Position numbers and translations under genes: made by a program. Below the pieces are notes generated by a model, which saw nothing but the letters and a program-made list of their open reading frames with translations, made no database searches and was not told the DNA's origin. This document shows, piece after piece, positions 6,241 to 39,706 of a stretch of DNA of 64,000 nucleotides (its first letter is position 1; each line of letters begins with the position of its first letter). This stretch comes from Thermoanaerobaculia bacterium (GTDB taxonomy: Bacteria > Acidobacteriota > Thermoanaerobaculia > Multivoradales > UBA5704): the NCBI GenBank assembly GCA_035536935.1, contig DATLNC010000143.1:2240-66239 (forward strand), written 5' to 3'.

Positions 6241-6243
6241 CCC

Positions 6244-6440
6244 CCAACCAACCGTTTGAGCCAGCTACCCAATAGGTAGACCCCTCTACCCGCTCGTTGG
6301 AGCCAGCTACCCACTCGTTTGGGCGAGCTACCCACTCTTTGGAGCCGCCTACCCCAACGGGTACACCCCTCTACCCGCTCGTCGGAGCCAGCTACCCGGC
6401 GGTTGGACTCCTCTACCCGCTCGTTGGAGCCACCCACCTC
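6244..6440. repeat. degenerate tandem array, about 9 units of 21 bp ending in CTACCC
   Basis: The CTACCC anchor occurs at 6265, 6286, 6307, 6328, 6349, 6371, 6392 and 6413. Spacings are 21,21,21,21,22,21,21. The consensus is roughly GCTCGTTGGAGCCAGCTACCC. The last unit overlaps the 3' end of CDS 6413..7045. Confidence 0.85.
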
Positions 6441-7045: not shown

Positions 7046-7083
7046 TTGGGGCCGATCATAACCCTTGCTACAGTGAGCGGCCC

Positions 7084-7836
7084 ATGGACCGGATCGATCT
7101 CGGGGCCTCCCATCTCGCCGTGCAGCTCGACGCCCCGCCAGGCGCCAGCGACTTCTGCCTCCTCTATCTCCATGGCTTCGGATCGGTGCAGACCGGCGAG
7201 AAGGCCGACTTCTTCCGGCAGAAGGCTCTGGAGAGCGGCTTCGCCTTCTGCTCTTTCGACTTCCAGGGTCACGGCCAGTCCGGCGGCACCATGCAAGGTC
7301 TCACCCTTTCCCGAAACCTCCAGGACGTGGCCCGGGTGCATGACTATGTGAGGGAGAGGGGCTACGACCGGGTCTGCCTGCTCGGCTCCTCGATGGGAGG
7401 AGGCACGGCCCTCTGGTACTCGGCGCTCCATCCGGACGAGGTCGTCGCCGGCCTCCACATCGCACCGGCTCTCCAGTTCGAGAGGAGCCTCACGGCCTGG
7501 GCCGGACCCGAGCGCTGCCGGACCTGGCAGGAGACCGGAACGATCCACTTCGAGAACGACCTCGTCTCCTGCGAGCTCGGCTGGGACCTGATCGAAGACC
7601 TCCGGCGCCACGCCTTCGAAGACCTACTTCACCAGTACCGGACCCCCGCCCTCCTCCTCCAGGGCAAGCTCGACACCTCCGTCCCCTGGAAGGATGTTGC
7701 CGACTTCGCCACTCGCTGCGCCTATCCCGGCATCGAGCTCCACCTCTTCGCCGACGGCGACCACCGCCTCACCGACCGCAAGGACCGGCTGTGGCAGCTC
7801 ATGCTGGAATTCCTGCGGGGACGCATGTTGCTCTAA
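7084..7836 (+). CDS. alpha/beta-fold hydrolase
   Basis: Nucleophile elbow GSSMGG and an HG-type oxyanion region (LYLHGFGS). Start ATG 7084 (MDRIDLG) was chosen because the longer ORF from 6796 overlaps the converging membrane-protein gene. Confidence 0.85.
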   Translation: MDRIDLGASHLAVQLDAPPGASDFCLLYLHGFGSVQTGEKADFFRQKALESGFAFCSFDFQGHGQSGGTMQGLTLSRNLQDVARVHDYVRERGYDRVCLLGSSMGGGTALWYSALHPDEVVAGLHIAPALQFERSLTAWAGPERCRTWQETGTIHFENDLVSCELGWDLIEDLRRHAFEDLLHQYRTPALLLQGKLDTSVPWKDVADFATRCAYPGIELHLFADGDHRLTDRKDRLWQLMLEFLRGRMLL

Positions 7837-11918: not shown

Positions 11919-14900
11919 CTAACGCCCTCCCGCGGCCCCTGCCGAGACGGCCGGAGCCCCACCCCCGTCCACGGTCCCCGCCGTCGTCGTGGCCGGTCCC
12001 GGGACGGTGCCGCCGGAAAGCCGCCAGATATGGTCGCGGATCGCCGCCGTCACCTTGTCCGTATCGGCCAGATAGGCGTTCATCTCGGCCTCGGACGCGA
12101 AGTACGGCAGGATCTGCTGCCTCTGCGCGGCGTAGGCCGGGGAGGCCAGCGCCTGGGCCACCGGCGACATGAACTCGCCAGGCTTGGTCTCCGGGAAGAA
12201 CGACGGCATGCGCGTGCCCGGGATCCAGCCCTGCGGGTTCTTCACCCAGGACGGGACCCAGTCGTGGCGCAGCCGCTCCCCGGCGAGCAGCAGGGACGGC
12301 GCGAGGTCGCCCGCTGCCGCCGTGCCCCCTGCGACTACCGGACCGGACGGATGGCACTTGGCGCACTGGAACATGTCGAACACCATCTTGCCCACTGCCA
12401 GGTCGCGCGCATGGGCCGCCACCGGCCGCGACGCGAACGGCTTCTGCTTCTCCCGCGACGCGAAGTAGCCGACCAGGGTGTTGGCCTGCTCGTCCGTGAA
12501 CCCGAAGGTGGGCATGCGCGCCGTGAGCCACGGCCGCATCCTCACGCGGCTGGGATCGTGGAGGTAGGCGAACAGCCAGTCGCCCTGTACCCGCGCCCCT
12601 TCGGCCGCCAGGTTCGGCGGCAGCATGGCCGGATCCTTGATCACCTGCTGGATCGCGTGGCCCTGTCCCTCGATCAGGTGGCAGCCCTGGCAGTTGAAGC
12701 GCGTGATCAGCTTGCGCCCCTCGGCCATGGCGGCCATGCGGCTGCCGTCCGCGGAACCCGCCTTGCGCGTCGCCGCCGCCGTCTCCTTGGTGAAGCCGAC
12801 GATGTTGGCGGTGATCGCCTGGGCCTCGCGCTCGGACATGCCGAAGTTCGGCATCTTGAGCAGCTCGTTGTAGTCCTTGACCCGCTCCTTGCCCTCGTCC
12901 CAGATGCGCGGCCGCAGCACCTTGGTCCTCACCCAGTCGTGACGGGTGTGGGAGACGCTGTGCACGTGGCCGAAGTCGAACTGGTGCATCGGCTTCGAGC
13001 CCTCCTGGGTCAGCTCGGTGCCGATCGGCTTGGCCTTTTCGAAGCCCTTGATGTCGTGGCAGCTGTAGCAGCCGTACTTGGCGATCGTCTGCTCGCCCAG
13101 GTAGACGTTGCGCTCGGTCTGGGACATGGCGTTCAGCTTGGAACGGCTGGACTCCAGGGTGAACAGGTTCTGGAGGTAACCCAGCGCCAGCTCGTCGCGG
13201 ACCTTGGTGTCGACCTGCGGCAGAGGCACGTTTTCATACTTCGGGTCGCGGCTCGACGACAGATAGGCGACGACGTCGGACGCCTCCTGGTCGGTGAGCC
13301 GCAGGTTCGGCATGTTCGTGTCGGGGAAGTACTGCTTCGGGTTCTTCACCCAGGCGTAGAGCCAGCCCTTGCTCACCTTGCTGCCGGTGCGCACCAGGTT
13401 GGGACCGTGCAGGCGGTTGATCCTGGGGAAGAAATCGTCCCGCTTGGCCTTGGCGTCCAGGATGTGGCAGCCGGCGCAGCCCACGGACTCGAAGACCCTC
13501 CTGCCGTTGGCCGGATCGCCCGCCGGGGCCGGTCCGTACTGCGGCCGGTCCGAGTTCGCCCACAGGTAGTCGACGATGGCGCGGATCTCCGCCGCCTGCC
13601 GCTTCTTGTTCTCCGGCGTCTCGGTGTTCTCCTGGTAGAAGAAGTGCGGCATGAACGTCGTCGGATGGAAGCTCCGCGGCGCCTCGATCCACTTGTACGC
13701 CCAGCCGGGGTTGGTCTTGCCGGCGATGCGCGTCAGGTCCGGTCCCGCCTTGCGCATGTTCGTATAGGACGGGTAGTTGATCGGATGGCAGCCGTTGCAC
13801 CCCATGTGGGTGATCAGCTCGCGGCCCACGTCCTGCGTTTCCGCCTTGGGCGTCCAGACGCCTCCCGCGTGGCAGGTCGCGCAGCCCGCCTCGGTCATGC
13901 CGGCAGGCAGGATCGGGTACTCCAGGTAGGCCTGCTGCTTCCAGTTGTACTTGCGCTCCCACTCCTTGCGCTGCTCGTCCGATTTCGGGCTGTGGCCGGC
14001 GCGGGAGAAGTCGGTGGCGCGGTCAAGACCGCCGTGGCAGACGGTGCAGCCGAACTGGGTGTAGGGATGCGGCGAGCTGTCGCCGACGAACTCCGCGAGC
14101 CGCGGGTGGCTGCGGTAGGGCTCCTTCCACTCCACGTCCTTGGTCGCCGGATCGTCTTCGAAGCCCGGGCGGTTCGCGGCCACGTGACAGGTCACGCAGC
14201 GGTCCACCCGGTTGATCTCGGTGAAGTTGATGTTGTGCGTCAGGCCCGGCAGGATCACCTGCTGCACGGAGAGGGTGGGCTTGACGAAGTCCATCAGCGG
14301 AGCGTTGAGCACGAAGTAGGCGGGGTCCTTGTCCAGGGCGGCGGCGCGGGTCTCCAGGCTGTCGACACCCGCCCGCAGGGCGGCCAGCCTCTCCTCGGCG
14401 TCGGTCACGGCCTTGCGGCGCTGGGCGATCTCGGCCTGGACCGCATCGCGCTGTTTCCCGTACCCCTCCCTCTCCGCCTGGGCATCGGTCAGAGCCTTCT
14501 TCTCCTCCTGGACGCGGTCGCGCTTGTCCGGGTCGACAGCCCCGCCGGCCTGGATCGACTGGTCATAGAGGAAACGGGCTTCGTCGAGCCGCGCCTTGGC
14601 GCCGCGCCACTTCGAATCGGCCTGGCTCCACTTGGAGGACAGCTCCCGCACCTGATCCTCGAGCTTCGCGATCTCGTCGCGGTGCTTGCCCACGGCCTTC
14701 TCGGCCGTCCGGATCTCGGCCTGGAGCTGCTTGCTCTGACCCCCGATCTTGTCGCTCTCCTCCTTCAGCTCCTTGCGCAGCTGCTCCTTTTCCAGGTCGC
14801 GGAATTCGGCCTGGAACCGCTTCCAAGGCTGCGCGTAGTCGGCGACGACCATCCACAGGGTGGTCGCCAGCAGCGCCAGGGCGCTGATGGCGAACCACAT

Positions 14901-26628: not shown

Positions 26629-28026
26629 ATGAGACACAGGCCATGGGTCGCCAGCGTGGTCATGACGATCGCGCTCGTGGGGTCGGGTGCCGAGCTGGGA
26701 GCGCTGGACGTCTCCGAAATCGACCGCCTCATCGAGCGCAACGTCCAGGAGGGGCATCTCGTCGGCCTCTCCGTCGCAGTGATGCATCAAGGCCGGATCG
26801 TGCTGGCCAAGGGCTACGGCGTCCGCTCCCTGGAGACGCGTGAGCCGGTCACGCCCGACACCCTGTTCGCCGCCGGCTCCCTCACCAAGCAGTTCACCTG
26901 CGCCGCCGCCCTCCTCCTGGCCGAGGAAGGGAAGCTCTCGCTGGACGACCGGGTCGCCAAGTACGAGCCCGGGCTAACCCGCGCTGCCGACATCACGCTG
27001 CTCGACCTCGGCCAGCACGTCGCCGGCTACCGCGACTACTACCCCCTGGACTTCGTGGACCGGCCCATGGCCCAGGCGAGGCCCACGGACGGAATCATTC
27101 AGGAATTCGCGAAAAGACCGCTCGACTTCGAGCCGGGCACGCGCTGGTCCTACAGCAACACGGGCTACCTGATCCTCGGCCGGGTCGTGGAAAAAGTCTC
27201 CGGCGAGCCATTCGGGAGCTTTCTCGGCCGGCGGATCCTCCAACCGCTGGGCATGAGTCACACCCGGTACGAGCCGAAGAGGGACGAGCCCGGTCTCGCG
27301 GAGGGCTACACCTCTTTCGGACTGGGCGCGCCCCAACCGGCCGTCCCCGAGGGGGAAGGCTGGCTCGCCATGGCGGCCGGCCTCTGGTCCACCCCCAAGG
27401 ACCTGCTCGCCTGGGACCTCGCCCTGATGGACGGGAAGATCCTTTCCGAAGCCTCTTACCGGACGATGACCACGCCGCGCCGGCTCGCGGACGGACGCGC
27501 CACCAACTACGGCTGTGGCCAGTTCGTCCGCGACCGGGACGCCGCGCTCGTCCTCACCCACGAGGGGATCGTGGGCGGCTTCAACGCCTGGAACGCGATC
27601 GTGCCGGCCACGAGGTCCGGGGTCGTCCTCCTGGCGAATGCGGACTTCGGAGTGAGCCGTCCGCTTCGGGAAGCCATCCTCGCGAAGCTGCTCCCGCCGC
27701 CGGCGGAGGACATCCCCGCCATAAAGGGGCTGCCGGCCAAGGAAGCCGCGATGGCGCTCCTGCGCCAGCTCCGGGCAGGCAAGGTCGACCGCGCCACTCT
27801 CGGGGAGGAGTACGACGCCTGGCTGACTCCGGAGAGGATGGCCTCCGCCCTCCCGGAGAAGGGCGAAGTGAGCGAAATGGAAGTGGCCGACGTCTACGAG
27901 CGGGGCGGCATGGAAGTGGCGAAGCTCCGCTTCCGGATCGGGAGCGTGCCGGCCGAGGCCCTGATGTACCGGACGCCGGACGGCAAGATCCAGGAGTTCT
28001 TGTTCTACCCGCGGGAGCCTCTGTAA
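26629..28026 (+). CDS. serine hydrolase, beta-lactamase/transpeptidase-like family
   Basis: 465 aa with a signal peptide, an SxxK motif (SLTKQF) and a YSN motif (WSYSNTGY). Confidence 0.88.
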   Translation: MRHRPWVASVVMTIALVGSGAELGALDVSEIDRLIERNVQEGHLVGLSVAVMHQGRIVLAKGYGVRSLETREPVTPDTLFAAGSLTKQFTCAAALLLAEEGKLSLDDRVAKYEPGLTRAADITLLDLGQHVAGYRDYYPLDFVDRPMAQARPTDGIIQEFAKRPLDFEPGTRWSYSNTGYLILGRVVEKVSGEPFGSFLGRRILQPLGMSHTRYEPKRDEPGLAEGYTSFGLGAPQPAVPEGEGWLAMAAGLWSTPKDLLAWDLALMDGKILSEASYRTMTTPRRLADGRATNYGCGQFVRDRDAALVLTHEGIVGGFNAWNAIVPATRSGVVLLANADFGVSRPLREAILAKLLPPPAEDIPAIKGLPAKEAAMALLRQLRAGKVDRATLGEEYDAWLTPERMASALPEKGEVSEMEVADVYERGGMEVAKLRFRIGSVPAEALMYRTPDGKIQEFLFYPREPL

Positions 28027-28090
28027 CAAAGGCGGCCGGTTCGCGTCATCACTTATCAAGAGTTTCCTCTGTGCCGAGATCTCTATTTCG

Positions 28091-28119
28091 TTGACCCTCG
28101 GGAAAGCCACTCCTAGCAT
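28091..28119 (+). promoter_or_regulatory. candidate sigma70-type promoter of the CHASE2-caspase-CHAT operon
   Basis: TTGACC (28091-28096), N17, TAGCAT (28114-28119), about 60 nt upstream of ATG 28180. Motif match only. Confidence 0.3.
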
Positions 28120-28179
28120 CATGAGAGCTTGGGTTCATTCAGGACCGGCCTCTTTTTGCATTGCGGCGGGGAATCGTTG

Positions 28180-29616
28180 ATGTCTGTCCGGCGGTCGAAG
28201 TCGAAGTCCCGATCCTCTGCCGCTGGCGCCAGTGCGCGGCGCAAGGCTCGCCCGAACAACGTCCCGGTCCCTCCCTCCGTACCGGAGCCGGCGCGCTCTC
28301 GGCAAAAGGTCTCGAGGGCGTTCCTCCGGGGCTTCGCGGCGAGCCTGGCTATCGCTCTGGGCATCGAGGCCGCCCTCCACCTCCTCCACCATCACTACTC
28401 GCAGATCCAGGAGATCGAGGATCGGGCTCTCGACTGGACGGTTGCTCTCTCCCGGGGAATGGCGCCTTCCCGCAAGGACCCGGTGCCATTCACCTTCCTG
28501 GACATCGACGAGCGAACCTACCGGGACTGGAACGAGCCGGCGCTGGTCCCCCGGGACAAGCTGCGCAGGATGATCGAGACGGTGGCATCGGCATGCCCCC
28601 GGGTTCTGGTGGTGGACGTGGATTTGACGCGGAGCGTGGACCCGGCCGCGGACGCAGCCCTTCTCCGCTCGCTGCGCAAGGCGGCATTCCCGCCTCACGG
28701 CTGCAAATCCCTGCCGCTCCTCATCTTCCCGGCCGCCCTACGGAACCCGGCCGGGGAGAGCGGCTCTCTCTTCGTGCGACCCTCATTCCTCGAGGCCTCT
28801 CTGGCCGGGATCCCCAACATCGTTTGGGCCTCACCGCTGTTCGACCGGGCGTCCGACTGGCAGATCCGCCGTTGGCGGCTCTGGGAGAGGATCCCCCCGA
28901 AACGGGATGGATCTCCCGAGGTGATGCCTTCAATCCAGATCCTCGTCGCGGCTGCGGTCCTCGAGCCCGAGACTCCGCTTCCCCAGATCATGGAGCGGAT
29001 CCGCTCGGCGGTGCTGGAAGAGAAACCGGAGGTGCGCATCGGCAGGCTGGAGCTGTCGGTGAAGCCGTCCCGGCTCAACCAGAGGATCGCCTACCGGTAT
29101 CCCGCGGAGCTGCGGGAGGGCGAGGCCTACCCCAGAGACCCGGCGACCGGCCGCGAGCTGTTGAGCGTGATCCCGGCTTACCCTCTGCTCCGGCGGGAGC
29201 AGGTGAGCCCGGATCTGTTCCGCGGCCGGATCGTGGTGATCGGCGGGAGTTTCGAGGAGGGGCGCGACGTCTACCGGACGCCGCTCGGCCCCATGCCGGG
29301 AGCCCTGATCCTGATCAACTCCATGGACTCGCTGCTGGAGCACGGCGAGATCGGGCTGCCGCCGCCAACCCTGCGATACGGTCTTCTCGCCGCTTCGGTG
29401 CTGGTCATGAGCCTGATCTTCTCCTCGTTCCCGCCCCGCAAGGCTGCCCTGATCGCCGCCGCCGTGTTGATCCTGGGGCTTCTCCCTCTCAGCGTGTTCC
29501 TGTTCCGGGGTGGATACTGGCTCGACTTCGCCGTGCCTGCAATCGCCGTCTTCCTGCACCGGCTGGCGGCGGACGTCGAAGGCATTTTCCATCGCAAGCA
29601 TGCGGAGACTCATTGA
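28180..29616 (+). CDS. stand-alone CHASE2 sensor-domain membrane protein (no output domain)
   Basis: It has a basic N-terminus and one TM helix (FAASLAIALGIEAAL). A CHASE2-type periplasmic region contains LVVDVDL and RIVVIGGSFEEGRDVYRTPLGPMPGALILINSMDSLL. Three C-terminal TM helices follow, then about 20 residues and the stop. ATG 28180 is preferred to TTG 28129. Confidence 0.8.
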   Translation: MSVRRSKSKSRSSAAGASARRKARPNNVPVPPSVPEPARSRQKVSRAFLRGFAASLAIALGIEAALHLLHHHYSQIQEIEDRALDWTVALSRGMAPSRKDPVPFTFLDIDERTYRDWNEPALVPRDKLRRMIETVASACPRVLVVDVDLTRSVDPAADAALLRSLRKAAFPPHGCKSLPLLIFPAALRNPAGESGSLFVRPSFLEASLAGIPNIVWASPLFDRASDWQIRRWRLWERIPPKRDGSPEVMPSIQILVAAAVLEPETPLPQIMERIRSAVLEEKPEVRIGRLELSVKPSRLNQRIAYRYPAELREGEAYPRDPATGRELLSVIPAYPLLRREQVSPDLFRGRIVVIGGSFEEGRDVYRTPLGPMPGALILINSMDSLLEHGEIGLPPPTLRYGLLAASVLVMSLIFSSFPPRKAALIAAAVLILGLLPLSVFLFRGGYWLDFAVPAIAVFLHRLAADVEGIFHRKHAETH

Positions 29617-32579
29617 TGCGCCACCCTCTCGTCCTCCTGGCTCTGGCCCTCTGGTCGGCCCGCGCTGTCGCTGCCGGCCTGCACGTGTGCAATGTGGAGG
29701 ATGTGACGGGCCAGGGCGCCAAAGTCCAGAGGGTGGACGGTCGCACCGATCCCCTCCTCCCCTATACACCCCTGGTGAACGGCGACCGTATCGTGATCCA
29801 GGGCTCCGCCCAGGTGACGGTGCGCTGCGGCAGCCAGACGCATGTCCTGACCCAGGACAAGGACCCGGTCTGGACAGCCCACAGCGGAGACGCTCCCCCC
29901 GGCCGTATCGCAAACCTGATGGCCTGGATCAATGAGCTCTTCAGCACGGCGGAGCAGCACGGCGCTTCGGTCGCCAGCCTGCACATCCGCGGCGACAAGG
30001 AACCGCCATCGCTCCCACTGCTCGCCGGCGCGGACGGCGCGTTCGCCGCGGGCCGGACCTCCCTGGCCCTGGCTTGGACCGGCGGCGCTGCTCCCTACTC
30101 CGTCCGGGTTTACCGTGCCGCCGACGGTCTCACGGTGCTCGCCGCCGAGCAGGTCTCTGAGCTCCGGACCCTCCTCCGCGGGAAGGAGCCGGTCGCCCCC
30201 GGCCGCTATGAGCTGGAGGTCCGCGACTCGCTCGGCAGGACCGCCGGCGCCCCCCTGGAGGCTCTGAGGTCCGAGGCCCTGCCCGAGGTACCCGCGGCCT
30301 TCGCTCCCAACGGTGAGAAGGACCTCGTCGGCCGCACGATCGAGGCGGCCTGGCTGGCGGCGCACGCGGACGGGCGTCTGGCTCTGGAGGCCTATCAGCG
30401 GGTGGCGGAGATGGCGCTCTCGCACGACGCCGCCCGCCGTCTGCGGGACGCCTTCGAGGCCGGGCTGCGTCCCACCCCTCCGCCGCCGCTGCCGGATGAG
30501 GGTCGCGCCCCCGGACGCGCCCTCCTGATCGGCTGTACCCGCTATCCCAACCTGGACCCGAAGCGGTGGCTGGAGGGGGGCGAGAACGACGCGCTCCTGA
30601 TGCGGGATCTCCTGACCGGCAGATCCTTCCGCTTCGATCCGGCGAAGGTCTCGGTTCTGGCGGGATGGCCGGCCGATCCCCGGTTGCGGCCGACGCGCGA
30701 GAACATCGTCAGGCAGATCGAGCGGCTGACCTCGGCCGTGATTCCCGGGGAGATCGTCGTCCTGTTCCTGGCCGGACACGGCAGCCAGGAGCCTTCGGAT
30801 GGATCGCCGGACGACCCTGAGCCCGACGGCTTGGATGAGATCTTCCTGCCGGCCGACGTCAAGGGTTGGAACGGGCGACAGGGACAGGTCGAGAATGCCA
30901 TCCGCGACGACGAGATCCGCCATTGGGTTGAGGCGCTCCGCGGCCGCGGGGCGCTCGTCTGGCTCCTGGCCGACGCCTGCCATTCGGGGACTCTGCTGCG
31001 CGGAGCCCCGGCCGAGGTGGAGCGGGAGAGGCGGCTCCCACCGGATCTCCTGGTGCCGCCAGAGGTGCTTGCCGTGGCCCGGAGGCACATTTTAAACGAC
31101 GCCCCGGTAGACTCGGGTGTCTTGGACGTCCCGACCGGAGCCGGGAACATCGTCGCCCTCTACGCCTCCCGGCCGGAAGAGACGACGCCAGAGATGCGCC
31201 TGCCCGATCCGGAGAGCCCCTGGCACGGCCTCCTGACGTGGACGGTGGCCGAGACCCTCAGCCAGAGCGAGAGCCCGCTGACCTACCGCGAGCTCGCCGA
31301 AAGGGTCACCGCCCGCTACCGGGCCATGCCCCGCTTCTCACCGAATCCCATGATCGTGGGAGACCTGGACCGCAAGGTTCTCGGGCTCGAGTCGTGGCCG
31401 GAGAGGCCGAGGATCCTTCTCGCCGGCGAAGCTCCGGAAGCGCCGGGCAAGCTCCGCGTCCGCGCCGGAAGCCTGCTTGGTATACGCCCCGGAAGCGTGC
31501 TCCGGGTCTACCCTCCCGCGGGGGCGCCCCAGGCCGACCGTGCTCTCGGGCATGTTCGGATCGTGAGCGCCGGAGCGCTGGAGGCACTGGCGGAACCCGT
31601 CTCCTTTGATGGGCTGCCGGCGCCTGCCTCGCTGCCCCCAGGCTCACGGAGCTCGCCGGTGTTCCTGGACTACGGCGATCTGACCCTGAAGGTGGCCGTC
31701 CAGGTCCAGGAGCCCGCGCCGCCAGGGAGAGTCGGGCCGGAGCCGGTCACCCAGGTCCCGGGGGCTGGACCATCCGAGATCGAGGCGGCGCTGGCGGGTA
31801 TGCCGCGCCTGGTGGAACGGGTCGCCGATCCCGCGAGGGCGGACTGGTTCGTGCGCCAGCGCGGCACGGAGATCCTCCTGGTCCCGGCCTCAGGCTGGCC
31901 GGGCATGGTGGAGCCCCAGGGATTTGCGGTCGGCCTCGCCGGCAACGCGGCTCGGGAGCTTTCCGGCGCTCTCCAGAGGATCGCCCGCGCTCACGCCCTT
32001 CTCGCGGTCGCCGGAGAGGCTCTGCGCGGCGGCGGCCGTGCGGAGCGTGCGGAGGAGGTTGGCGTTCGCCTCGACCTCCTCCGTTTCCCGAAGGATGGAA
32101 GCGGACCAGGCGAGTCCGTCTCTTTCGAGAGGAACGGGCGCATCCTCCGGCTCGGCGACCGCGTGGCCTTCCGGATCGCCAATCCATACCTTCATCCCGT
32201 GGACGTGACGCTCCTCTTCATCGACAGCACCTACGGCATCGAGCCTTTCTATCCCCGGGCCGGCGAATACAACCGGCTGGGTCCGGGCGACTCGAGCCTC
32301 ACCGAAGTCTTCCGCGTCGAGAGGAAGGCCGCGGGGCCGGAGCAGGTGGTCGCCATCGCCGTGCGGAGCGGGAACGGCCAGCCCGTCGACTTCAGCTACC
32401 TGGCGCAGCCGGCGCTCGACCCGGCGCGGACGCGGGAGAGCAACGGCAGCGTCTCCGCGCTGGCGCAGCTCCTCGAAAGCGCCCTGTTCGGAACGGGACA
32501 GGCCCGGTCGCCGAAGGTCATGGAAGCAGAGGGATATTCGATCTCCCTCCTGAGCTGGACCACGGAGGCCGCGCCATGA
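29616..32579 (+). CDS. secreted caspase-family (peptidase C14) protein with large N- and C-terminal extensions
   Basis: ATG 29616 overlaps the CHASE2 stop (TGATG). Signal peptide is MRHPLVLLALALWSARAVAAG. Catalytic His is in FLAGHGSQ and catalytic Cys in LLADACHSG. The C-terminal beta-rich part resembles DUF4384-type caspase appendages. The portion of ORF 28161..32579 upstream of 29616 was rejected because it overlaps the CHASE2 gene out of frame. Confidence 0.88.
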   Translation: MRHPLVLLALALWSARAVAAGLHVCNVEDVTGQGAKVQRVDGRTDPLLPYTPLVNGDRIVIQGSAQVTVRCGSQTHVLTQDKDPVWTAHSGDAPPGRIANLMAWINELFSTAEQHGASVASLHIRGDKEPPSLPLLAGADGAFAAGRTSLALAWTGGAAPYSVRVYRAADGLTVLAAEQVSELRTLLRGKEPVAPGRYELEVRDSLGRTAGAPLEALRSEALPEVPAAFAPNGEKDLVGRTIEAAWLAAHADGRLALEAYQRVAEMALSHDAARRLRDAFEAGLRPTPPPPLPDEGRAPGRALLIGCTRYPNLDPKRWLEGGENDALLMRDLLTGRSFRFDPAKVSVLAGWPADPRLRPTRENIVRQIERLTSAVIPGEIVVLFLAGHGSQEPSDGSPDDPEPDGLDEIFLPADVKGWNGRQGQVENAIRDDEIRHWVEALRGRGALVWLLADACHSGTLLRGAPAEVERERRLPPDLLVPPEVLAVARRHILNDAPVDSGVLDVPTGAGNIVALYASRPEETTPEMRLPDPESPWHGLLTWTVAETLSQSESPLTYRELAERVTARYRAMPRFSPNPMIVGDLDRKVLGLESWPERPRILLAGEAPEAPGKLRVRAGSLLGIRPGSVLRVYPPAGAPQADRALGHVRIVSAGALEALAEPVSFDGLPAPASLPPGSRSSPVFLDYGDLTLKVAVQVQEPAPPGRVGPEPVTQVPGAGPSEIEAALAGMPRLVERVADPARADWFVRQRGTEILLVPASGWPGMVEPQGFAVGLAGNAARELSGALQRIARAHALLAVAGEALRGGGRAERAEEVGVRLDLLRFPKDGSGPGESVSFERNGRILRLGDRVAFRIANPYLHPVDVTLLFIDSTYGIEPFYPRAGEYNRLGPGDSSLTEVFRVERKAAGPEQVVAIAVRSGNGQPVDFSYLAQPALDPARTRESNGSVSALAQLLESALFGTGQARSPKVMEAEGYSISLLSWTTEAAP

Positions 32580-35500
32580 GGAGAACGCTCGTCCTCCTGC
32601 TGGCCGGCTCGTTCCTGCTCTCCTGCCGTCCGGTCCAGCCGCCGGCTCCACCGGGCATCCCGCCTGAAGCCCGTGCTCGGCGGGCGGACGATCTCGACGC
32701 CGAGCTGACCCGTCTCCTGGAGGGCGGCGGCCTCGCCTCGGCCGTGGAACGCTACCCCGCGGCCGTGGCCGCCCGGGAGGAGCTGCTGGCCGGCCGGCCC
32801 CTGGAGCTGGCCAGCTATCTCGACGACCTCACCGGCCGCTTCTATTTCGCGCCGGGAGCGACGCCGGAGGTCCGGAAGGTCGCGGAAACGCTGCTCTGGC
32901 GCGCGTACGAGCTGCGCCGGGCAGTCCCGGGAGAGGGGGAGCTGGCCGCGGCCTCCACTCTCTCGGACCTCGCCACCTTCTATTACGACAACGGCCAGTG
33001 GCAGCGCGCAGAGGAGCTGGAGAATCAGGCGCTGCAGATCCGCAGGGACAAGCTCCCGGCGAACGATCCCCTGGTGGCGAAGAGCCTCGGCGAACTCGGA
33101 GCCATCTACTACCGCCAGGGGCTTTACGCCAAGGCGGAGCCTCTTCTCGCAGATGCCGTCAGGATCCGGAGGCAGGCGGAGCCGCCCGATCCGCTCGCCC
33201 TGGCGGAAGCGCTCAATACGCTCGCCGAGGTCTATCGCGCGCGGGACCGCTACGGCGACGCCGAGGAGCTCTTCCGGGAAGCTCTGACGCTGGCCCGGCC
33301 GGCGGAGGGCGACGAAGCCCCGCTCGTCGCCGAGATCCTGAACAACCTGGCCGGGGTATACAGAGACCAGAGCCGCTACGAGGAGGTCGAGCCGCTCCTC
33401 GCCCAGACCCTGGCGATCCGGGAGCGCCATGCCGGCGACGACCCTGTGAGCCTGGTCCTCGCCTACCTGAATCAGGCGGACATCTTCCGTCTCCAGGGCC
33501 GCTATACCGAGGCCGAGAGCCTCTCCGTGCAGGCTCTGGAGAGGGGCCGCGAGCTCCTCTCTCCCGACGATCCCAATCTCGCCTGGTACCTCGACCAGGT
33601 CGGGCAGGCCTACGCCGAGGCCGGCCGGTACGACAAAGCCGAGCCGCTCTACAAAGAGGCGATAGTCGTGGTCGAGCGCACCCTGCCGCCGGACCATCCG
33701 CTGACCGCGCAGGTTCTGAACGACTTCGCCCGCATGCTCCGCCTCGCCGGGCGCTGGCACGAGGCCGAGCAGCACTACCTGCGAGCGCTCGGCATCCGCC
33801 AGCGGGCCCTCGGCGATCATCCCGAGACCGCCACGACCATGACCCAGCTCGCCCGCTGCCTCTTCCTGGAGAACGACGACGGCCGCGCCATGGAGCTGGC
33901 CGAGAAGGCTCTCGGGGTCCTGACGAAGACCAGCGCCTATCCCGAGGCCCGGGTCGACGCCCAGGCGCTGAAGGCGGAGATCCTGAAGCGCCGCGGAGAT
34001 GCCGGTTCCGCCATCGCCGCCCTGGCCGATGCCCTGTCCGGCGTGGAGGACCTGCGCCCGCACACCGGCGGCGACGAGCGGCTCCGGGCCGAGTTCCTGG
34101 GCCGCTATCTCGGCTACTTCAACGAGATGGTGGCCTGGCAGGTCGAGGCCGGAGATCCGGCCCGGGCTCTGGAGTACGCGGAGCGCGCCCGCGCCCGGGT
34201 GCTGCTCGACCAGCTCGCCGCCGGGCGCGTGGACCTGCTGCGCGGGATTCCGGCCGAGGTGCTCCAGCCTCTGGAGCGGCGCCGGTCGGAGCTGCGCGCC
34301 GTGCTCGCCGAGCACCAGCGGCGCCTCACCCTGCTCTCGTCGCGGACGGACCTCTCCGAGGAAGAACGGCTGCGCCAGACCGCGGAGCTGGAGAGGCAGA
34401 TCGACGAGGCGAGCCGCGAGCACCAGCGGGTGCTCAACGAGATCCGCAACGCCAGCCCCCTGTGGAGCGAGGTGATCACCGCCGGCGGCCAGCCGGTGCC
34501 CATTCCGGCCCTGCAGCGCGAGCTGACGCCGCCCGGGGGACAGTTGCTCCTCTATCAGGTCGGGGCCGAACAGAGCTTCCTGTTCGCGGTCCCGCCTCCT
34601 CCAGGCGAGATCCGTTCGTGGTCTCTGGAAGTCTCTCCGGAAGCGGCGCAGAGCCTCGGCGTTCCGGCCGGCCACCTCACCTCGGACAAGCTCGACGAAG
34701 TCCTCACGGGCAGCCGTGGCGCCGGCGCCAGCCTGGTCCAGATCCTGGGGACCAGCCGCGGCAGCCTGGAGCCGGAGAAGCCGTTCCCGGCGGCCGAGGA
34801 GATCCTGACCCGGCGCCTGCACGCGCTCTGGAGAGTCCTCGTTCCTGCGGACCTGTGGCCGCAGCTGCGGCGAGCCTCGGAAGTGGTCCTCGTTCCGGAC
34901 GGAGGGCTGCATCGCCTGCCGTTCGAAGCGCTGGTCGTCTCGCCGGGTTCGGGCGCGGTCCGCTACTGGCTGGACGACGGCCCGGTCGTGCGCTATGCCC
35001 CCTCGGCCACCGCCCTCTACAACGTCCGCAGGAAGGAGAACCGGAGCGCCGGCGGCGAGCGGCCCCGACTCCTGCTCATCTCGAACCCGGTCTTCGATCT
35101 GAAGGAGCTGGCGGCCGTCGAAGCTCCCTCCCGGACCCGCTACGCGCGGGCCGGCGGGAGCCTGGAGCGGCTTCCGGGTACGGCGCGGGAGGCGGAGGCC
35201 ATCCAGGGAGTCCTGCGCGGCGGAGTGGAGTCCCTCGCGGGGCTCGCCGCCACGGAATCCAGAGTGAGGGAGGCTCTCCGCGGAAACCCGAGATACCTCC
35301 ACTTCGCCACCCACGGGCTGGTCGACGAGGGGCGGAGCGAGCTTCTGGCAGCCCTCGCGCTGACGCCGCCGCCGGGAGAGGCCCCGGCCGCCGAAGACGA
35401 CGGGCTCCTCCAGCTCTTCGAAATCTACGAGCTGGACCTGGACAGCGACCTCGCGGTCCTCTCGGCGTGCAAGACCCACGCGGGCCGCCAGCTCGCAGGC

Positions 35501-35758
35501 GAGGGGGTCTTCGCCCTCTCCCGCGGCTTCCTCGCCGCCGGAGCGCGGCGGGTGGTCGCCAGCCTCTGGCCCGTCAACGACGAGTCGACCGCGGTCCTCA
35601 TGGGCAACTTCTACGGCCGGATCGCCGAGGCGGAGAGCTCCGGCCGCCGGCCGGACTACGCCCGTGCCCTGCGGGACGCGCGCCGAGCCCTGCGCAAGGA
35701 ACCGCGCTGGTCCGCTCCCTACCACTGGGCCCCCTTCGTCCTCTCCGGGGAACCGTGA
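32576..35758 (+). CDS. TPR-repeat CHAT-domain protease, predicted lipoprotein
   Basis: ATGA overlap with the caspase stop. Lipoprotein-like signal is MRRTLVLLLAGSFLLSC. About 10 TPR units (LNNLAGVYRDQSRYEEVEPL and similar) and a coiled-coil segment follow. The CHAT core carries RYLHFATHG and DLAVLSACKT. Confidence 0.9.
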   Translation: MRRTLVLLLAGSFLLSCRPVQPPAPPGIPPEARARRADDLDAELTRLLEGGGLASAVERYPAAVAAREELLAGRPLELASYLDDLTGRFYFAPGATPEVRKVAETLLWRAYELRRAVPGEGELAAASTLSDLATFYYDNGQWQRAEELENQALQIRRDKLPANDPLVAKSLGELGAIYYRQGLYAKAEPLLADAVRIRRQAEPPDPLALAEALNTLAEVYRARDRYGDAEELFREALTLARPAEGDEAPLVAEILNNLAGVYRDQSRYEEVEPLLAQTLAIRERHAGDDPVSLVLAYLNQADIFRLQGRYTEAESLSVQALERGRELLSPDDPNLAWYLDQVGQAYAEAGRYDKAEPLYKEAIVVVERTLPPDHPLTAQVLNDFARMLRLAGRWHEAEQHYLRALGIRQRALGDHPETATTMTQLARCLFLENDDGRAMELAEKALGVLTKTSAYPEARVDAQALKAEILKRRGDAGSAIAALADALSGVEDLRPHTGGDERLRAEFLGRYLGYFNEMVAWQVEAGDPARALEYAERARARVLLDQLAAGRVDLLRGIPAEVLQPLERRRSELRAVLAEHQRRLTLLSSRTDLSEEERLRQTAELERQIDEASREHQRVLNEIRNASPLWSEVITAGGQPVPIPALQRELTPPGGQLLLYQVGAEQSFLFAVPPPPGEIRSWSLEVSPEAAQSLGVPAGHLTSDKLDEVLTGSRGAGASLVQILGTSRGSLEPEKPFPAAEEILTRRLHALWRVLVPADLWPQLRRASEVVLVPDGGLHRLPFEALVVSPGSGAVRYWLDDGPVVRYAPSATALYNVRRKENRSAGGERPRLLLISNPVFDLKELAAVEAPSRTRYARAGGSLERLPGTAREAEAIQGVLRGGVESLAGLAATESRVREALRGNPRYLHFATHGLVDEGRSELLAALALTPPPGEAPAAEDDGLLQLFEIYELDLDSDLAVLSACKTHAGRQLAGEGVFALSRGFLAAGARRVVASLWPVNDESTAVLMGNFYGRIAEAESSGRRPDYARALRDARRALRKEPRWSAPYHWAPFVLSGEP

Positions 35759-35837
35759 GGTCAGGTCCGTCCAATGTAGATGTGGCTATTGGACACCTCG
35801 ATTCCGGCCCCATAGGCTTTAGAAAAAAGAGGCTGTC

Positions 35838-37220
35838 ATGAGAAGGAACTGGTACTTGCTCGCTTTGAATCTCGTGCTGCTGGCCATGCCCGCCGGAGCG
35901 GACGTGCTGGGCAGTAAAAAGGTATCCAGGATCTATGAGACCGCTGGAGCCTGGTGCCAGATCCCCTACAGCAATCGTAGCGACTTCGGCGGGCCAGTGG
36001 TACAACCCGTTTCGGAGCTCTTGGTCTTCGAGGCTACCGGGACGGCCGCGACGATCGTTCTCGAGGCGAAAAACCTGACCAACAATGGCGCATGGCAGGC
36101 CAATGCGATCGACAACTTCGTGGTGGCCAGGAGCGACGTCTTCCCAATCGATACGCTCTGGCAGGACGGAGGATGCTTCTCCAGCCTGCCGGTGTACTTC
36201 AACTTCCCCCAGCTCGAAAACGATCCGCGGATTCACTTCGCCGACCCTTTCATCAACGCTCCCCGGCCGGAATGGACGGGGCTCGGAGCCCCGGGACCCC
36301 ATTGGGTCCTTGCTTCGTCCAACCTGCCGTACTTTTCTCTCCACCCCAATCAGGAGAACGGCGCGCTGCGCTTTGCCGATAGCAACGGCCCCGCCATCCC
36401 TTCGACCAGCATAACCCTGACGGATCTCATTCCGGGTGAAGAATACGGGATCTCTTTCTGGTGGTACACGTCAATACCCGAACCGGGCTCGCGGCCCGAG
36501 ATCTCCATCCTGGTTTTGGACACTCCCCGCCTCACGGGCAGCCCACGGTCCGACACGATCACCGCACCGGCGGGTCTCCAGGCATGGGACTACTTCTATG
36601 TCGACGTTCCCGAAGGTGCAGAGAATCTGCAGGTCGACCTCTATGGCCTGTCTGCGGACGCCGACCTCTACATGCGCTATGGGGACAGGCCCGGTCCTGG
36701 TCTACCGATGGACTGCGCTTCCCTGGAAGGGAGAACGGAAAAGGACCAGTGTTGGTTTTCTCTTCCCGCACCGGGACGTTGGTGGATCGGAGTGACCAAC
36801 TTCGATTCAGGATCGATCAATTATACGATTCAGGCGACCTGGAAAGAGAGCGGCGGCTTCTACACGATCCGGCCCTGCCGGCTCGAGGACACTCGCACCG
36901 AGTCGGGATTCCCTCTCCAATCGGGGAACGTCCACTTCCTCGAGGTCGCAGGACTGTGTCAGGTTCCCGTGTCCGCCAAAGCCGTTTCCCTGAACATCAC
37001 CGCCGTGAGTCCCTCAGGTTCCGGAGATCTGAGGTTCTGGGAAAGCGGTGTACCCGAACCTCCGACCAGCACGATCAGCTTCGCTGCCGGACAGAACCGG
37101 GGCAACAACGCGATCCTGGGGCTGCCTGCAAACGGGGCAAGGACCTTGTTGGTGAGGCCTTTCGTGACAGGCAACGGCACGGTCCACCTGATCGTCGACG
37201 TGAACGGGTATTTCCAGTAG
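35838..37220 (+). CDS. secreted protein with pre-peptidase C-terminal (PPC) domain and C-terminal CR..DTR-type beta domain
   Basis: Signal peptide MRRNWYLLALNLVLLAMPAGA. PPC-like block WDYFYVDVPEGAENLQVDLYGLSADADLYMRYG...GRWWIGVTNFDSGSINYTIQ. C-terminal PCRLEDTR...VDVNGYF. AAGAGG SD precedes the start. Confidence 0.8.
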   Translation: MRRNWYLLALNLVLLAMPAGADVLGSKKVSRIYETAGAWCQIPYSNRSDFGGPVVQPVSELLVFEATGTAATIVLEAKNLTNNGAWQANAIDNFVVARSDVFPIDTLWQDGGCFSSLPVYFNFPQLENDPRIHFADPFINAPRPEWTGLGAPGPHWVLASSNLPYFSLHPNQENGALRFADSNGPAIPSTSITLTDLIPGEEYGISFWWYTSIPEPGSRPEISILVLDTPRLTGSPRSDTITAPAGLQAWDYFYVDVPEGAENLQVDLYGLSADADLYMRYGDRPGPGLPMDCASLEGRTEKDQCWFSLPAPGRWWIGVTNFDSGSINYTIQATWKESGGFYTIRPCRLEDTRTESGFPLQSGNVHFLEVAGLCQVPVSAKAVSLNITAVSPSGSGDLRFWESGVPEPPTSTISFAAGQNRGNNAILGLPANGARTLLVRPFVTGNGTVHLIVDVNGYFQ

Positions 37221-37231
37221 GCTCTGAGCCC

Positions 37232-37690
37232 ATGAGACACGGAAAGGCATGGACTCTGGCGCTGGCGCTCCTCCTCCTGGGCGGATGCGCGGGCACACGG
37301 GGGCGCGGTCCCGGCGTGCCCCTGATCACCGAGGAGGAGGCCGCGATGCCTGACGCTCCCGAGGAGCGCGACCGTCAGGTCTGCGGACCTCCGGAGATCC
37401 AGATCCGGAGCCCACTGAACGGAAGGACCTACCCGCCGCCTGTGCCGGTCGAAGTCCGGTTCATCCCGTCCAGCGGTGCCCGGATCGACCCCTCAACCAT
37501 CCGCATCGGGCTCATCAAGCTAGGGATGAAAATCGACCTTACGGAGAGAGCCCACGAGTACATCTCGGCGTCAGGGATCTCGCTGCCGAGAGCGGAGATT
37601 CCCACGGGAAGATACCGCGTTCAGGTCACCGTGGGAGACAGTTCCGGGAGGAAATGCTCGGAGACGGTCCAGTTCACTGTGGCTCCCTGA
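37232..37690 (+). CDS. small lipoprotein, hypothetical
   Basis: 152 aa with lipobox LLLGGC. The start is 11 nt after the preceding stop. Confidence 0.7.
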   Translation: MRHGKAWTLALALLLLGGCAGTRGRGPGVPLITEEEAAMPDAPEERDRQVCGPPEIQIRSPLNGRTYPPPVPVEVRFIPSSGARIDPSTIRIGLIKLGMKIDLTERAHEYISASGISLPRAEIPTGRYRVQVTVGDSSGRKCSETVQFTVAP

Positions 37691-37696
37691 GACAAT

Positions 37697-38130
37697 CCAG
37701 ACGGAGCCGCTCTGAAGATTTGCGCCGGTCTGAGCCGCTTTGATCCGCCCTGAGCTTGCTGGATCGGCTCCAAACTTTTCAGATCCGCCCCAAACTTTTT
37801 AGATCGGCCCCGAGATTCTTAGACCCGGGCTAAGAACCTTAGATCGGGCCAAATCTTCTTAGATCCAGTCCTTTGGATCTTGGAACCGATCTAAGAACTT
37901 TGGATCGGATTCAAGCCGCTCAGATCGGATCCAAGCTTCTTAGACCGGTCCCAAGAACCTCAGATCGCATCTAAAGCTTCTTAGAACCAATCTTTCGGAT
38001 TTTGGGCCGTTCAGAAAGTCCTGGATCGGATTCGAGCCGCTTGGAGCGGATCCAAGACTTTTCGGATGGGTCGAAGACTTTCCCGCCAGCTCGGAACCAT
38101 TCGGTTGGCTTCAGAGTGGCTCCAACTCTG
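37697..38130. repeat. degenerate tandem array, about 20 units of 20 bp (consensus near AGATCGGATCCAAGCTTCTT)
   Basis: AGATC/GGATC-type anchors occur at 37741, 37761, 37781, 37801, 37821, 37841, 37861, 37882, 37902, 37922, 37942, 37962, 37983, about 38003, 38023, 38043 and 38064. Spacings are 20-21. Core words occur in both orientations (CTTAGATC / GATCTAAG). The boundaries are approximate. Confidence 0.85.
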
Positions 38131-38229
38131 TCAGAAACGCCCTGGACGGCTCAGAGGCGTCCCTCGCCGCTCAGAATGGCGCCCGCCCCCCCAGCCACCC
38201 AGGGAGCCGGACTCCATGCCATGTCGCCT

Positions 38230-38589
38230 TCAGCGAACCCGGCAGTTGAGCGTGGGGGGCCAGTACCTCCCAAGCTGGCGCGGCCGGCCGGGAAGCGTCT
38301 TCGGGGCCGACGCCCGCTCACTGTTCGCGAAAGTCATCCGGGAGTCCGGGAGCCGCGACGCCCGTTCGGTCGGGAGCTGCCCTGCGCCGACAGGGACGAC
38401 CTCCGGTTGGCCGAAAGCCTCGCGCCAGAGGTCCAGGGCTTCGCAGGCCGACCCGGCGCGGCAGGCCGGCGATTGCGCGATGCGCCTCGCCAGCTCGCAC
38501 GGGTCCTCGGCCGGTTGCGGCCGGTCCGGCGCGGCGGTCGCGGTGAGAGTCGTGGTCAGCAGGAGTGCGAGAAGGAGCTTGGCTGTCAT
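38230..38589 (-). CDS. small secreted Cys-containing hypothetical protein
   Basis: Strong SD (GAGGAGGA) lies 5 nt upstream of ATG 38589. Signal peptide MTAKLLLALLLTTTLTATA. The C-terminal third runs toward the repeat array and looks non-protein-like, so the true functional length is uncertain. Confidence 0.5.
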   Translation of the reverse strand: MTAKLLLALLLTTTLTATAAPDRPQPAEDPCELARRIAQSPACRAGSACEALDLWREAFGQPEVVPVGAGQLPTERASRLPDSRMTFANSERASAPKTLPGRPRQLGRYWPPTLNCRVR

Positions 38590-38622
38590 CGTATCCTCCT
38601 CTTTGATCTGCCGGGTATTCTA

Positions 38623-39516
38623 TCAAACCTCCCGCGAAGCGAGCTTCTGGGCCGACTGAATCAACTCTTCGGCCTTTGCGGCGCTCACGGCTTCGCGGCC
38701 CTTGGCCTCGGCCGATTTCGGCCGGCTGGCGGCGGCGGCGGCGACGGTGGCGGAGGAGCTGGCCGCGAGGTCCGCCAAGCCACGGAACCCGGCTTCGGAC
38801 AGGACCCGGGCCACGGGAGGGGTGAGCCCGGGGACCGACAACAGCTCCGCCTGCGCGAGGCAGAGGCCCAGCCGCTCGCGCTCCTCCCCGAGCAGGCGCC
38901 GGAGCTCGACCCGGCTGCGCACGCGCGTCCCGGCCGACAGGAAGTCCTGGACGGAGAAGATCTGATTTTCGTGCAGCACGCGCCGCGCCTCCTGGGTCAG
39001 GCCTTCGATTGAATCCAGGCCGAGGGTCGAGAGCGGGACGCAGGCGGGCGGCGGCCCGTCCGAGCTTGGCTTCGGCAGCGGCACGAGGTCGAGCGTCAGA
39101 CGGCTGAGCGCCTCGTTTTCCCCCGGCCGGGCGAAGCGGTATCCGATCTGGCCGAGCGCATTGACGTCGACCCGCACCTGGGCCTCCAGGCGGAACTCCT
39201 TGACGGCGAAGTTGCTGACCGGGTTGTCGAGCGACGAGAGCCGGCCCTGCAGCGAGTCGACCGCTCCCTGAAGGGCGGAGGCAAGGTCGTCCGGCGAGCT
39301 CGGCGGCCGCTCGGTCGTCTCGAGCTTTTTCTTGAGCTGGAGGTTCTCCTCCGTGAGCCGCACCACCTCCCGCCGCAGCGCCGCCAGCTCCTCGCTTCCC
39401 GTCCCGGGCTCCGGCAGCAGCTCTCCATCCTTGCCCAGGGGCACGAAGATGCCGGGCCGCCCTTCGTGGACGATGAAGAAGTCCTGGAGATGCAGGTCCT
39501 TCGACAGTTCAGTCAT
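38623..39516 (-). CDS. coiled-coil protein with tandem helix-hairpin-helix (DUF4332-like) C-terminal region
   Basis: Start at ATG 39516 (MTELSKDL) rather than 39570. Coiled coil is LAALRREVVRLTEENLQLKKKLE. HhH-like units are IEGLTQEARRVLHENQIFSVQDFL and SVPGLTPPVARVLSEAGFRGLADLA. Confidence 0.65.
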   Translation of the reverse strand: MTELSKDLHLQDFFIVHEGRPGIFVPLGKDGELLPEPGTGSEELAALRREVVRLTEENLQLKKKLETTERPPSSPDDLASALQGAVDSLQGRLSSLDNPVSNFAVKEFRLEAQVRVDVNALGQIGYRFARPGENEALSRLTLDLVPLPKPSSDGPPPACVPLSTLGLDSIEGLTQEARRVLHENQIFSVQDFLSAGTRVRSRVELRRLLGEERERLGLCLAQAELLSVPGLTPPVARVLSEAGFRGLADLAASSSATVAAAAASRPKSAEAKGREAVSAAKAEELIQSAQKLASREV

Positions 39517-39526
39517 CCCGCCGGAT

Positions 39527-39706
39527 CTAGCCACCGGTGCCCTCCGAATCTGTCGTGCCCTCCTTGGCATGGCGCACGGGGAGCGACCGGGGGGTCAGCA
39601 CCAGGCGTACCCGCAGGCCGCTCGACGCCTGATAGCCGTAGAGGCCGACGCTGCCCGGATCGAGGGTCCGGCAGAGCAGCCGCGAGCCGGCGACGCTCGC
39701 CGACAT
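39527..39706 (-). CDS. possible 59-aa ORF upstream of the DUF4332-like gene
   Basis: ATG 39706 to TAG 39527-39529 (MSASVAGSRLLCRTLDPGSVGLYGYQASSGLRVRLVLTPRS...). It ends 10 nt before the next start. There is no convincing SD and it is below the ORF-track cutoff. Confidence 0.2.
   Translation of the reverse strand: MSASVAGSRLLCRTLDPGSVGLYGYQASSGLRVRLVLTPRSLPVRHAKEGTTDSEGTGG

Follow-up and report, generated by a model that had tools for sequence, protein, structure and literature searches.

What does a CHASE2 sensor do when it has no output domain to drive? CHASE2 is among the commonest extracytoplasmic sensor domains of bacteria, mostly with a ligand that is not known, and it normally serves as the extracytoplasmic input of a fused cytoplasmic output domain. 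The caspase and CHAT proteases of bacteria, for their part, are currently seen as executioners that act in the cytoplasm, under the control of NTPases or CRISPR effectors. Representatives of all three occur side by side in a five-gene operon on a contig of a Thermoanaerobaculia (Acidobacteriota) metagenome-assembled genome, of which we analyzed a stretch of 64,000 nucleotides (nt; hereafter the window, ~67% G+C). An initial annotation of this stretch described an output-less CHASE2 protein followed by an exported C14 caspase, a TPR-CHAT lipoprotein, a secreted PPC-domain protein and a small lipoprotein, and proposed a sensor-gated proteolytic cascade in the periplasm or envelope, with one of the last two proteins as substrate or effector. 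Our analysis suggests that the window holds one version of a widespread module that cuts proteins in the envelope rather than inside the cell. On balance, we favor a model in which CHASE2 and a periplasmic domain that we name X form a complex that tethers and gates a periplasmic caspase-fold protease, the operon at hand being a lineage-specific, five-gene version of that module.

The CHASE2 protein and the two proteases

Five open reading frames (ORFs) lie on the + strand of the window, at 28180-29616, 29616-32579, 32576-35758, 35838-37220 and 37232-37690, and independent calls by the Joint Genome Institute (JGI) on the same contig are identical, giving products of 478, 987, 1060, 460 and 152 residues. 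The CHASE2 gene overlaps the caspase gene through TGATG at 29614-29618, and the caspase gene overlaps the CHAT gene through ATGA at 32576-32579; these overlaps may couple translation of the three genes. In genes, Pfam domains, overlaps and export signals alike, the layout is as first described. The parts that concern the module itself are as follows, where L numbers denote loci compared with the window.

28180-29616, + strand: output-less CHASE2 membrane protein, 478 residues (Pfam CHASE2, hydropathy, AlphaFold model, stand-alone homologues)
29616-30494, + strand: X domain, residues 1-293 of the caspase, with a predicted signal peptide at residues 1-20 (homology, fusions, model)
30495-31385, + strand: Peptidase C14 catalytic domain, metacaspase/orthocaspase type (Pfam, alignment with metacaspase structures)
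31386-32579, + strand: C-terminal tail of the caspase, ~400 residues (no Pfam match; kept in L007 and L026)
32576-35758, + strand: predicted exported TPR-CHAT protease, 1060 residues (Pfam CHAT and TPR_12, conserved dyad, N-terminus)

The first gene product matches the CHASE2 profile (Pfam PF05226) over residues 70-398, with an E-value of 7.7e-21 and 75 bits against a cutoff of 26.3. Hydropathy and an AlphaFold model (pLDDT 86, pTM 0.83) agree on the topology originally proposed: a basic N-terminal tail, one transmembrane (TM) helix at ~46-72, the CHASE2 domain, and three C-terminal TM helices at 396-416, 419-443 and 451-477. The basic tail suggests an N-in orientation. Roughly 10-20 cytoplasmic residues follow the last TM helix, and the output domain of canonical CHASE2 receptors—kinase, cyclase or GGDEF/EAL—is absent.

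Such a protein could be a receptor that has lost its output, an explanation that the initial annotation had itself raised against its reading. The homologues contradict it. All 26 CHASE2 homologues from databases (26/26; 293-589 residues) stand alone, and the 23 that are near full length (436-527 residues) all stop just past the third C-terminal TM helix. Because every homologue is stand-alone and the near-full-length ones end at this point, the output-less CHASE2 protein is, on comparative grounds, a genuine family rather than the truncated remnant of a kinase or cyclase. An alignment of the homologues shows good conservation of the three C-terminal TM helices and of a G-x-W-L-D loop. The N-terminal tail differs greatly in sequence and in length, some homologues having a short one or none. 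Scanning one genome per species yielded 18 further genome loci that encode CHASE2 relatives.

Downstream of CHASE2, the Peptidase_C14 model matches residues 300-585 of the caspase (2.4e-14). His388 (in FLAGHGSQ, nt 30777) and Cys455 (in ADACHSG, nt 30978) fall in register with the GHG and CHSG of metacaspases 6w8s and 4f6o, motifs that hold the catalytic dyad of those structures. The window C14 protein is a predicted protease, with putative cleavage after Arg or Lys. Its C-terminal tail, initially estimated at ~500 residues, measures ~400 and has no Pfam match at E<=1. The tail is strongly conserved in L007 and L026, and is weakly related (phmmer 6e-05) to that of a signal-peptide-bearing C14-DUF4384 caspase at L010 15175-17274, whose gene adjoins another CHASE2-X pair.

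The third gene product joins a TPR array (residues ~130-490; TPR_12, 2e-63; about six TPR_12 units) to a CHAT domain (Pfam PF12770; E 5.2e-63, profile positions 2-289, residues 746-1059). Its dyad residues, His913 (nt 35312) and Cys965 (nt 35468), are invariant in all of the system-associated CHAT proteins (12/12), and the dyads assigned at the outset to both proteases are thereby placed. The protein begins with a signal peptide and a possible lipobox, LLSC at Cys17. The lipoprotein signal of the initial annotation is to this extent present in the window, whereas the CHAT protein of the close relative L007 lacks the lipobox Cys.

A TPR array and then a CHAT protease domain is also the architecture of Csx29, a cytoplasmic protein of the type III-E CRISPR 'Craspase' that Cas7-11 gates together with target RNA. 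The comparison with Csx29 drawn initially holds at the level of architecture but amounts to resemblance: at E<=0.01 the window CHAT domain has no sequence match to solved structures, hence none to Csx29. Moreover, unlike Csx29, the window protein has an export signal, and no CRISPR effector gene was seen in its operon. When the five genes of the operon and five ORFs beside it were scanned with Pfam and PADLOC, no Cas protein was returned, with no dedicated CRISPR-array search made.

Domain X and the conserved module

The stretch ahead of the C14 domain had been described as ~330 residues long and unassigned. It is closer to ~290 residues, and sequence comparison shows that residues 1-293 of the caspase belong to a conserved family, X, which in our proposed view would be the adaptor linking CHASE2 to the protease. 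Elsewhere, X homologues are the products of unannotated genes of ~300 codons immediately downstream of CHASE2, and they share with the caspase N-domain the motifs W-x-G-G-x-x-P-Y/F and L-E-A-Y-Q. An exhaustive HMMER search (E<=1e-3) yielded 508 cluster representatives, mostly stand-alone proteins of 280-320 residues, ~90% of which open with a hydrophobic, signal-like segment. Pfam and NCBIfam models gave 0 matches to the window X domain and to 82 members of the family, and those members that were looked up are either named 'hypothetical protein' or unnamed. The X profile can be used to find and annotate systems of this kind.

In its AlphaFold model (pLDDT 92, pTM 0.87), X runs from a signal helix through a small beta domain, a long helix, a lower-confidence loop and an immunoglobulin (Ig)-like sandwich to a three-helix bundle, and its fold matches, which are weak, are Ig-like structures. 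Of 82 sequences, 81 have R or K at position 125, mostly with Gly after it; in the window this is Arg125 (nt 29988), in the lower-confidence loop. Two known families were considered for X and rejected, namely FecR (PF04773; the COG4254-type CHASE2 partner) and DUF928, each matching 0/82 members at E<=1. Inspection by eye finds a FecR-like G-D-x-I pattern in the N-terminal beta domain, and weak BiPBP_C matches occur in 8/82 members, the best at 1.4e-3.

How general is the association seen in the window? We counted co-occurrence over about 27 independent loci, the window included, which were reached from the CHASE2 side: the 18 from the one-genome-per-species scan, made with a CHASE2 alignment, and metagenomic loci, all searched locally with profiles. 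Wherever the contig allows, X adjoins CHASE2 (L001, L003-L014, L016-L023, L025-L027, L030 and L031). These loci span Acidobacteriota, Alphaproteobacteria, Desulfuromonas, Nitrospira, Gammaproteobacteria (Parabeggiatoa, Thiodiazotropha and Thiotrichaceae) and others. A CHAT or C14 gene lies within 7 kb in 22 of the 27, and the co-occurrence of an output-less CHASE2 with exported C14 or CHAT proteins is conserved across phyla. Most loci have a single protease. The series X-C14 followed by TPR-CHAT is confined to the window's close relatives L007, L026 and probably L027, and there are WD40 variants of the module at L010, L020 and L023. Of the envelope system envisaged at first, the pairing of an output-less CHASE2 with exported proteases therefore stands, but a conserved cascade from caspase to CHAT does not.

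Gene fusions tie the same parts together. Fusions of X to C14 are found in the window, P0027, L007 and L026; X is fused to TPR-CHAT in P0029 of L030, which with CHASE2 makes a two-gene system, and to WD40 in P0091 and PDZ-TPR in L014. The converse two-gene system, CHASE2-X plus a signal-peptide-bearing C14 protein, occurs at L031. CHASE2-X fusions have five representatives, and one of their clusters has three members, on contigs of different lengths. It is conceivable that the window merely juxtaposes, by chance, a CHASE2 protein, or what is left of a decayed CHASE2 kinase or cyclase gene, with unrelated proteases. We give this next to no credence in view of the stand-alone CHASE2 family, synteny in more than 25 loci of several phyla, and fusions in every combination.

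The CHASE2-X fusions bear on location as well. In these proteins a basic linker and a fifth hydrophobic segment come before X, which, as read from the sequence, therefore shares the periplasmic side of the membrane with the CHASE2 domain. Signal peptides and lipoboxes were called from hydrophobicity and motif. By these calls, the four gene products encoded downstream of CHASE2 in the operon all start with a signal-like segment, with plausible lipoboxes in two, and nearly all loci have partner CHAT, C14 and WD40 proteins that start likewise. Apart from the short, poorly conserved tails of CHASE2, the module appears to have no cytoplasmic part, and its soluble parts are predicted to be extracytoplasmic. 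The envelope location proposed at first is thereby supported.

Placement outside the cytoplasm is what separates this module from a cytoplasmic conflict system, whether Csx29/Craspase-like or an NTPase-gated caspase, in which the hydrophobic N-termini would not be export signals at all. The Csx29-like TPR-CHAT architecture would suit such a system, as would the AAA_21, Abi_alpha and HEPN-Toprim genes beside L004. Yet the signal-like N-termini are conserved in nearly all partners, and some loci use an outer-membrane secretion route (TPS/ShlB, below). X has a signal of its own and shares a side of the membrane with the CHASE2 domain; an NTPase or CRISPR effector gene was neither seen in the operon nor conserved nearby; and the failure of the CHAT domain to match the solved structures, Csx29 among them, points the same way. 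We judge a cytoplasmic system to be very improbable.

Two loci place CHAT proteins in the company of two-partner secretion (TPS) genes. At L001 1901-9208, the gene of a TPS-TPR-CHAT protein lies beside a ShlB/POTRA transporter gene, with an unannotated 675-residue protein encoded between them; at L005 462-7708, a separate 1060-residue TPS protein and a ShlB/POTRA transporter gene stand next to the CHAT gene. A Pfam scan of the window proteins found no TPS domain and no ShlB-type transporter. Loci of this kind would be expected of a secretion or maturation platform, in which CHASE2 and X are a dock or latency factor rather than a sensor, and the proteases are passed on to the cell surface or the medium, where they would attack external targets in the service of nutrition, remodeling of the surface or antagonism toward neighbors. 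The lipoprotein-like signals on the window's CHAT protein and small protein lend themselves to this reading, as does the secreted PPC protein, whose domain is typical of secreted peptidases. It is nonetheless unlikely in our estimation, given that an outer-membrane secretion gene is absent from most loci, that fusions of TPR or WD40 repeats to caspase folds are more typical of regulated than of bulk digestive proteases, and that CHASE2 has elsewhere been known in no capacity but that of a receptor module.

A proposed model for gated proteolysis

The model of a tethered and gated protease, which we favor, starts from the conserved core: a four-TM output-less CHASE2, a periplasmic X of ~290 residues and at least one exported CHAT or C14 protease, usually with a TPR or WD40 scaffold. 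X would bind the periplasmic CHASE2 domain, such that the protease is tethered at the outer face of the cytoplasmic membrane. A ligand or protein perceived by CHASE2, by X or by the repeat scaffold would then switch the protease on, and the output would be proteolysis of envelope or incoming proteins, with no cytoplasmic signal. Cleavage of X between Arg125 and Gly might be a self-cleavage or activation step along this path. What the sequences show are domain identities, catalytic residues, synteny, fusions, export signals and the placement of X on the CHASE2 side; that the parts bind one another, which of them controls which, what is cut and what purpose this serves we infer, envelope defense or programmed cell death being our leading guess for the purpose.

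Arg125-Gly is a candidate site for self-cleavage or activation by a protease specific for basic residues. It is possible, though we would not call it probable, that the module represents a new class of caspase system resident in the envelope, in which CHASE2 and X constitute a periplasmic activation platform, loosely akin to an apoptosome placed on the outer membrane face, that detects a breach of the envelope or a foreign protein, with Arg125 cleavage as the switch, and then releases the caspase or CHAT protease, the outcome being destruction of the envelope or inactivation of the invader. If an activation platform of this sort is indeed at work, X would be a new adaptor family that takes a sensory domain to proteolysis without a second messenger or phosphorelay.

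Proteolysis could also be the means of a signal that runs inward. In this scheme, the protease would cut CHASE2 or X, and the remaining membrane stub or the basic tail would relay the event by intramembrane proteolysis or by a TM pore. The window CHASE2 has a 45-residue, highly basic cytoplasmic N-terminal tail that might serve such a relay, and the conserved C-terminal TM helices with their G-x-W-L-D loop are compatible with it. FecR-type proteins, moreover, are a family known for regulated proteolysis. Partners of the FecR type pair with other CHASE2 receptors (PMC5192318). The prospect is nevertheless a rather poor one: the N-terminal tail is, as described, highly variable among homologues, the neighboring genes include no conserved transcription factor, sigma factor or site-2 protease, and X is without a FecR match in 82 members.

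Several observations weigh against the tethered-protease model that we prefer. Binding of X to CHASE2, and of X to the protease, is argued from synteny and fusions, and the export calls derive from hydropathy. Five of the 27 loci have no protease in the sequence available; three of these are limited by contig ends, one has a WD40 protein, and one has the X-PDZ-TPR fusion, cut by a contig end. Arg125 could be structural and not a cleavage site. The CHASE2 fold has no match to any solved structure, either by sequence search or by Foldseek comparison of the AlphaFold model with the PDB, and no solved CHASE2 structure was found. The data offer no link between the module and phage defense: no defense system of PADLOC-DB 2.0 was matched, the hits being a generic caspase (2e-10), TPR and a weak BovA, with 0 matches for CHASE2, the PPC protein and the lipoprotein. 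Finally, the genes that flank the module are not conserved among the loci. Separately, an identity of CHASE2 as a pseudo-caspase or another known fold was considered and dropped, with no Foldseek match in the PDB below E 0.1 and no sequence match.

A full-text literature search found no published triad of CHASE2, X and an exported protease, nor any paper joining CHASE2 with 'CHAT domain', or 'CHAT domain' with 'two-partner secretion'. Elements of the arrangement do have published counterparts. For example, CHASE2 histidine kinases are encoded in operons with a secreted LysM-FecR partner, as in the 'BiofilmReg' operon of Burkholderia, and a related partner-plus-kinase operon exists in P. aeruginosa PAO1 (PMC5192318). 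The window resembles these operons in setting a CHASE2 gene beside a dedicated periplasmic partner with a signal peptide. It differs in that their CHASE2 has cytoplasmic PAS, HisKA and HATPase domains and a response regulator, whereas the window has no cytoplasmic output; in that X matches neither FecR nor LysM (0/82); and in that the associated activity is an exported caspase-fold protease.

Caspases linked to CHASE2 have likewise been reported, both as a metacaspase-CHASE2 fusion of Trichodesmium erythraeum (PMC3501461, PMC2853523) and as EACC2-caspase with a C-terminal CHASE2 (PMC8195603). In these fusions the caspase is N-terminal to the first TM helix and predicted to be cytoplasmic, with CHASE2 outside; the window caspase, by contrast, is a separate, predicted exported protein on the CHASE2 side, joined via X. 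A Nostoc punctiforme cluster, mentioned briefly as species-specific (PMC5587647), encodes a CHASE2 sensor and a DUF928 protein along with two WD40 proteins and a hypothetical one; it similarly combines CHASE2 with a small uncharacterised protein and repeat scaffolds, and is in this respect comparable to the WD40 variants of the module. Its partner is DUF928, which no X member matches (0/82), and a link to a protease was not drawn (PMC5587647). A further likeness may be found in Sinorhizobium meliloti, whose CHASE2 adenylate cyclases CyaD1, CyaD2 and CyaK act with the outer-membrane protein NsrA, such that CHASE2 senses a proteinaceous signal by way of an envelope partner, as might also be the case here; that system differs in its cytoplasmic cAMP output and involves neither a protease nor an X domain (PMC13001267).

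In essence, CHASE2 sensing and caspase/CHAT systems are of known kinds, and what is new here is the adaptor family X, together with a logic that is unusual in being wholly extracytoplasmic. The module would give CHASE2 a direct, assayable output in the form of proteolysis, together with a defined protein partner, and would extend regulated proteolysis of the caspase type to the bacterial envelope.

Accessory genes and genomic surroundings

The remaining features of the operon are its last two genes and a candidate promoter.

35838-37220, + strand: predicted secreted PPC-domain protein, 460 residues (Pfam PPC; lower G+C; clade-specific accessory)
37232-37690, + strand: small predicted lipoprotein, 152 residues, lipobox LGGC at Cys19 (no family match; clade-specific accessory)
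28091-28119, + strand: sigma-70-like promoter match, 5' of the CHASE2 gene (a possible promoter of the operon, on weak evidence)

The PPC gene (Pfam PPC, 1.5e-9) has, as noticed from the start, a lower G+C than its neighbors: 0.603, with a G+C of 0.74 at third codon positions (GC3), versus 0.67-0.72 and a GC3 of 0.83-0.89 for the core genes. This composition suggested a recent insertion, an idea rejected on the strength of a remnant in L007, the nearest relative with enough contig. L007 has no PPC gene, but ~13 codons from the 3' end of a PPC-type gene persist in the spacer between its CHAT and lipoprotein genes (8456-8530), TVHLLVDVTGYFQ versus TVHLIVDVNGYFQ (window 37180-37220). Because these codons are retained, loss from L007 is the better reading of the sequence than insertion in the window, the PPC gene probably being ancestral to a small clade, and dispensable.

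Immediately upstream of CHASE2, L026 (1094-1966) and L027 (4085-4948) encode a secreted protein of ~290 residues with no Pfam match, which weakly resembles the N-terminal ~210 residues of the window PPC protein (E 1e-4, 24% identity). The small lipoprotein has no family above threshold; a 64%-identical homologue occupies the same position in L007. Local profile searches of the other loci detected neither the PPC protein nor the small lipoprotein, and both are, judged by this distribution, clade-specific rather than core parts. A general role for either as substrate or effector, as first suggested, does not fit with their restriction to one clade or with the deletion of the PPC gene in L007.

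The sigma-70-like match at 28091-28119 is the sole promoter-like site in 27800-38200, where shuffled sequence averages 0.8, and it is not above chance. A beta-lactamase-family gene further upstream (26629-28026) was considered as a part of the system and rejected, not being conserved in relatives.

The surroundings of three other loci deserve brief description. At L030, lactate-permease genes or fragments lie on both sides of the two-gene system (3408-5095 and 12510-13981), a fragment of the permease C-terminus (YVFWHSIALASLV) being present on either flank, which suggests that a cassette was inserted or duplicated. At L004 (2330-6444), the CHAT/CHASE2/X locus is directly beside AAA_21/AAA_15, Abi_alpha and HEPN_Toprim_N genes, resembling a defense island, and a second TPR-CHAT gene lies further upstream. 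L019 has, at 5797-7542, the gene of a large serine recombinase with Resolvase and Recombinase domains; it lies ~3 kb away from a CHASE2-X pair that shows no protease within the sequence available. Anecdotal as they are, these contexts hint at mobility or defense.

Right after the small lipoprotein gene, the intergenic region of the window at 37697-38080 has a degenerate tandem array with a period of ~20 nt and a local G+C of 0.52. Its unit is roughly T[A/G]GATCGGnnCCAAGnnCTT, present in at least 8-12 copies, and the array includes several inverted-repeat pairs. Further downstream of the operon, two long ORFs overlap on opposite strands, at 38002-39012 (+) and 38623-39570 (-). Only the latter, for which the JGI call is shorter, matches a family (DUF4332/HHH_5), and the ORF at 38002-39012 is probably spurious.

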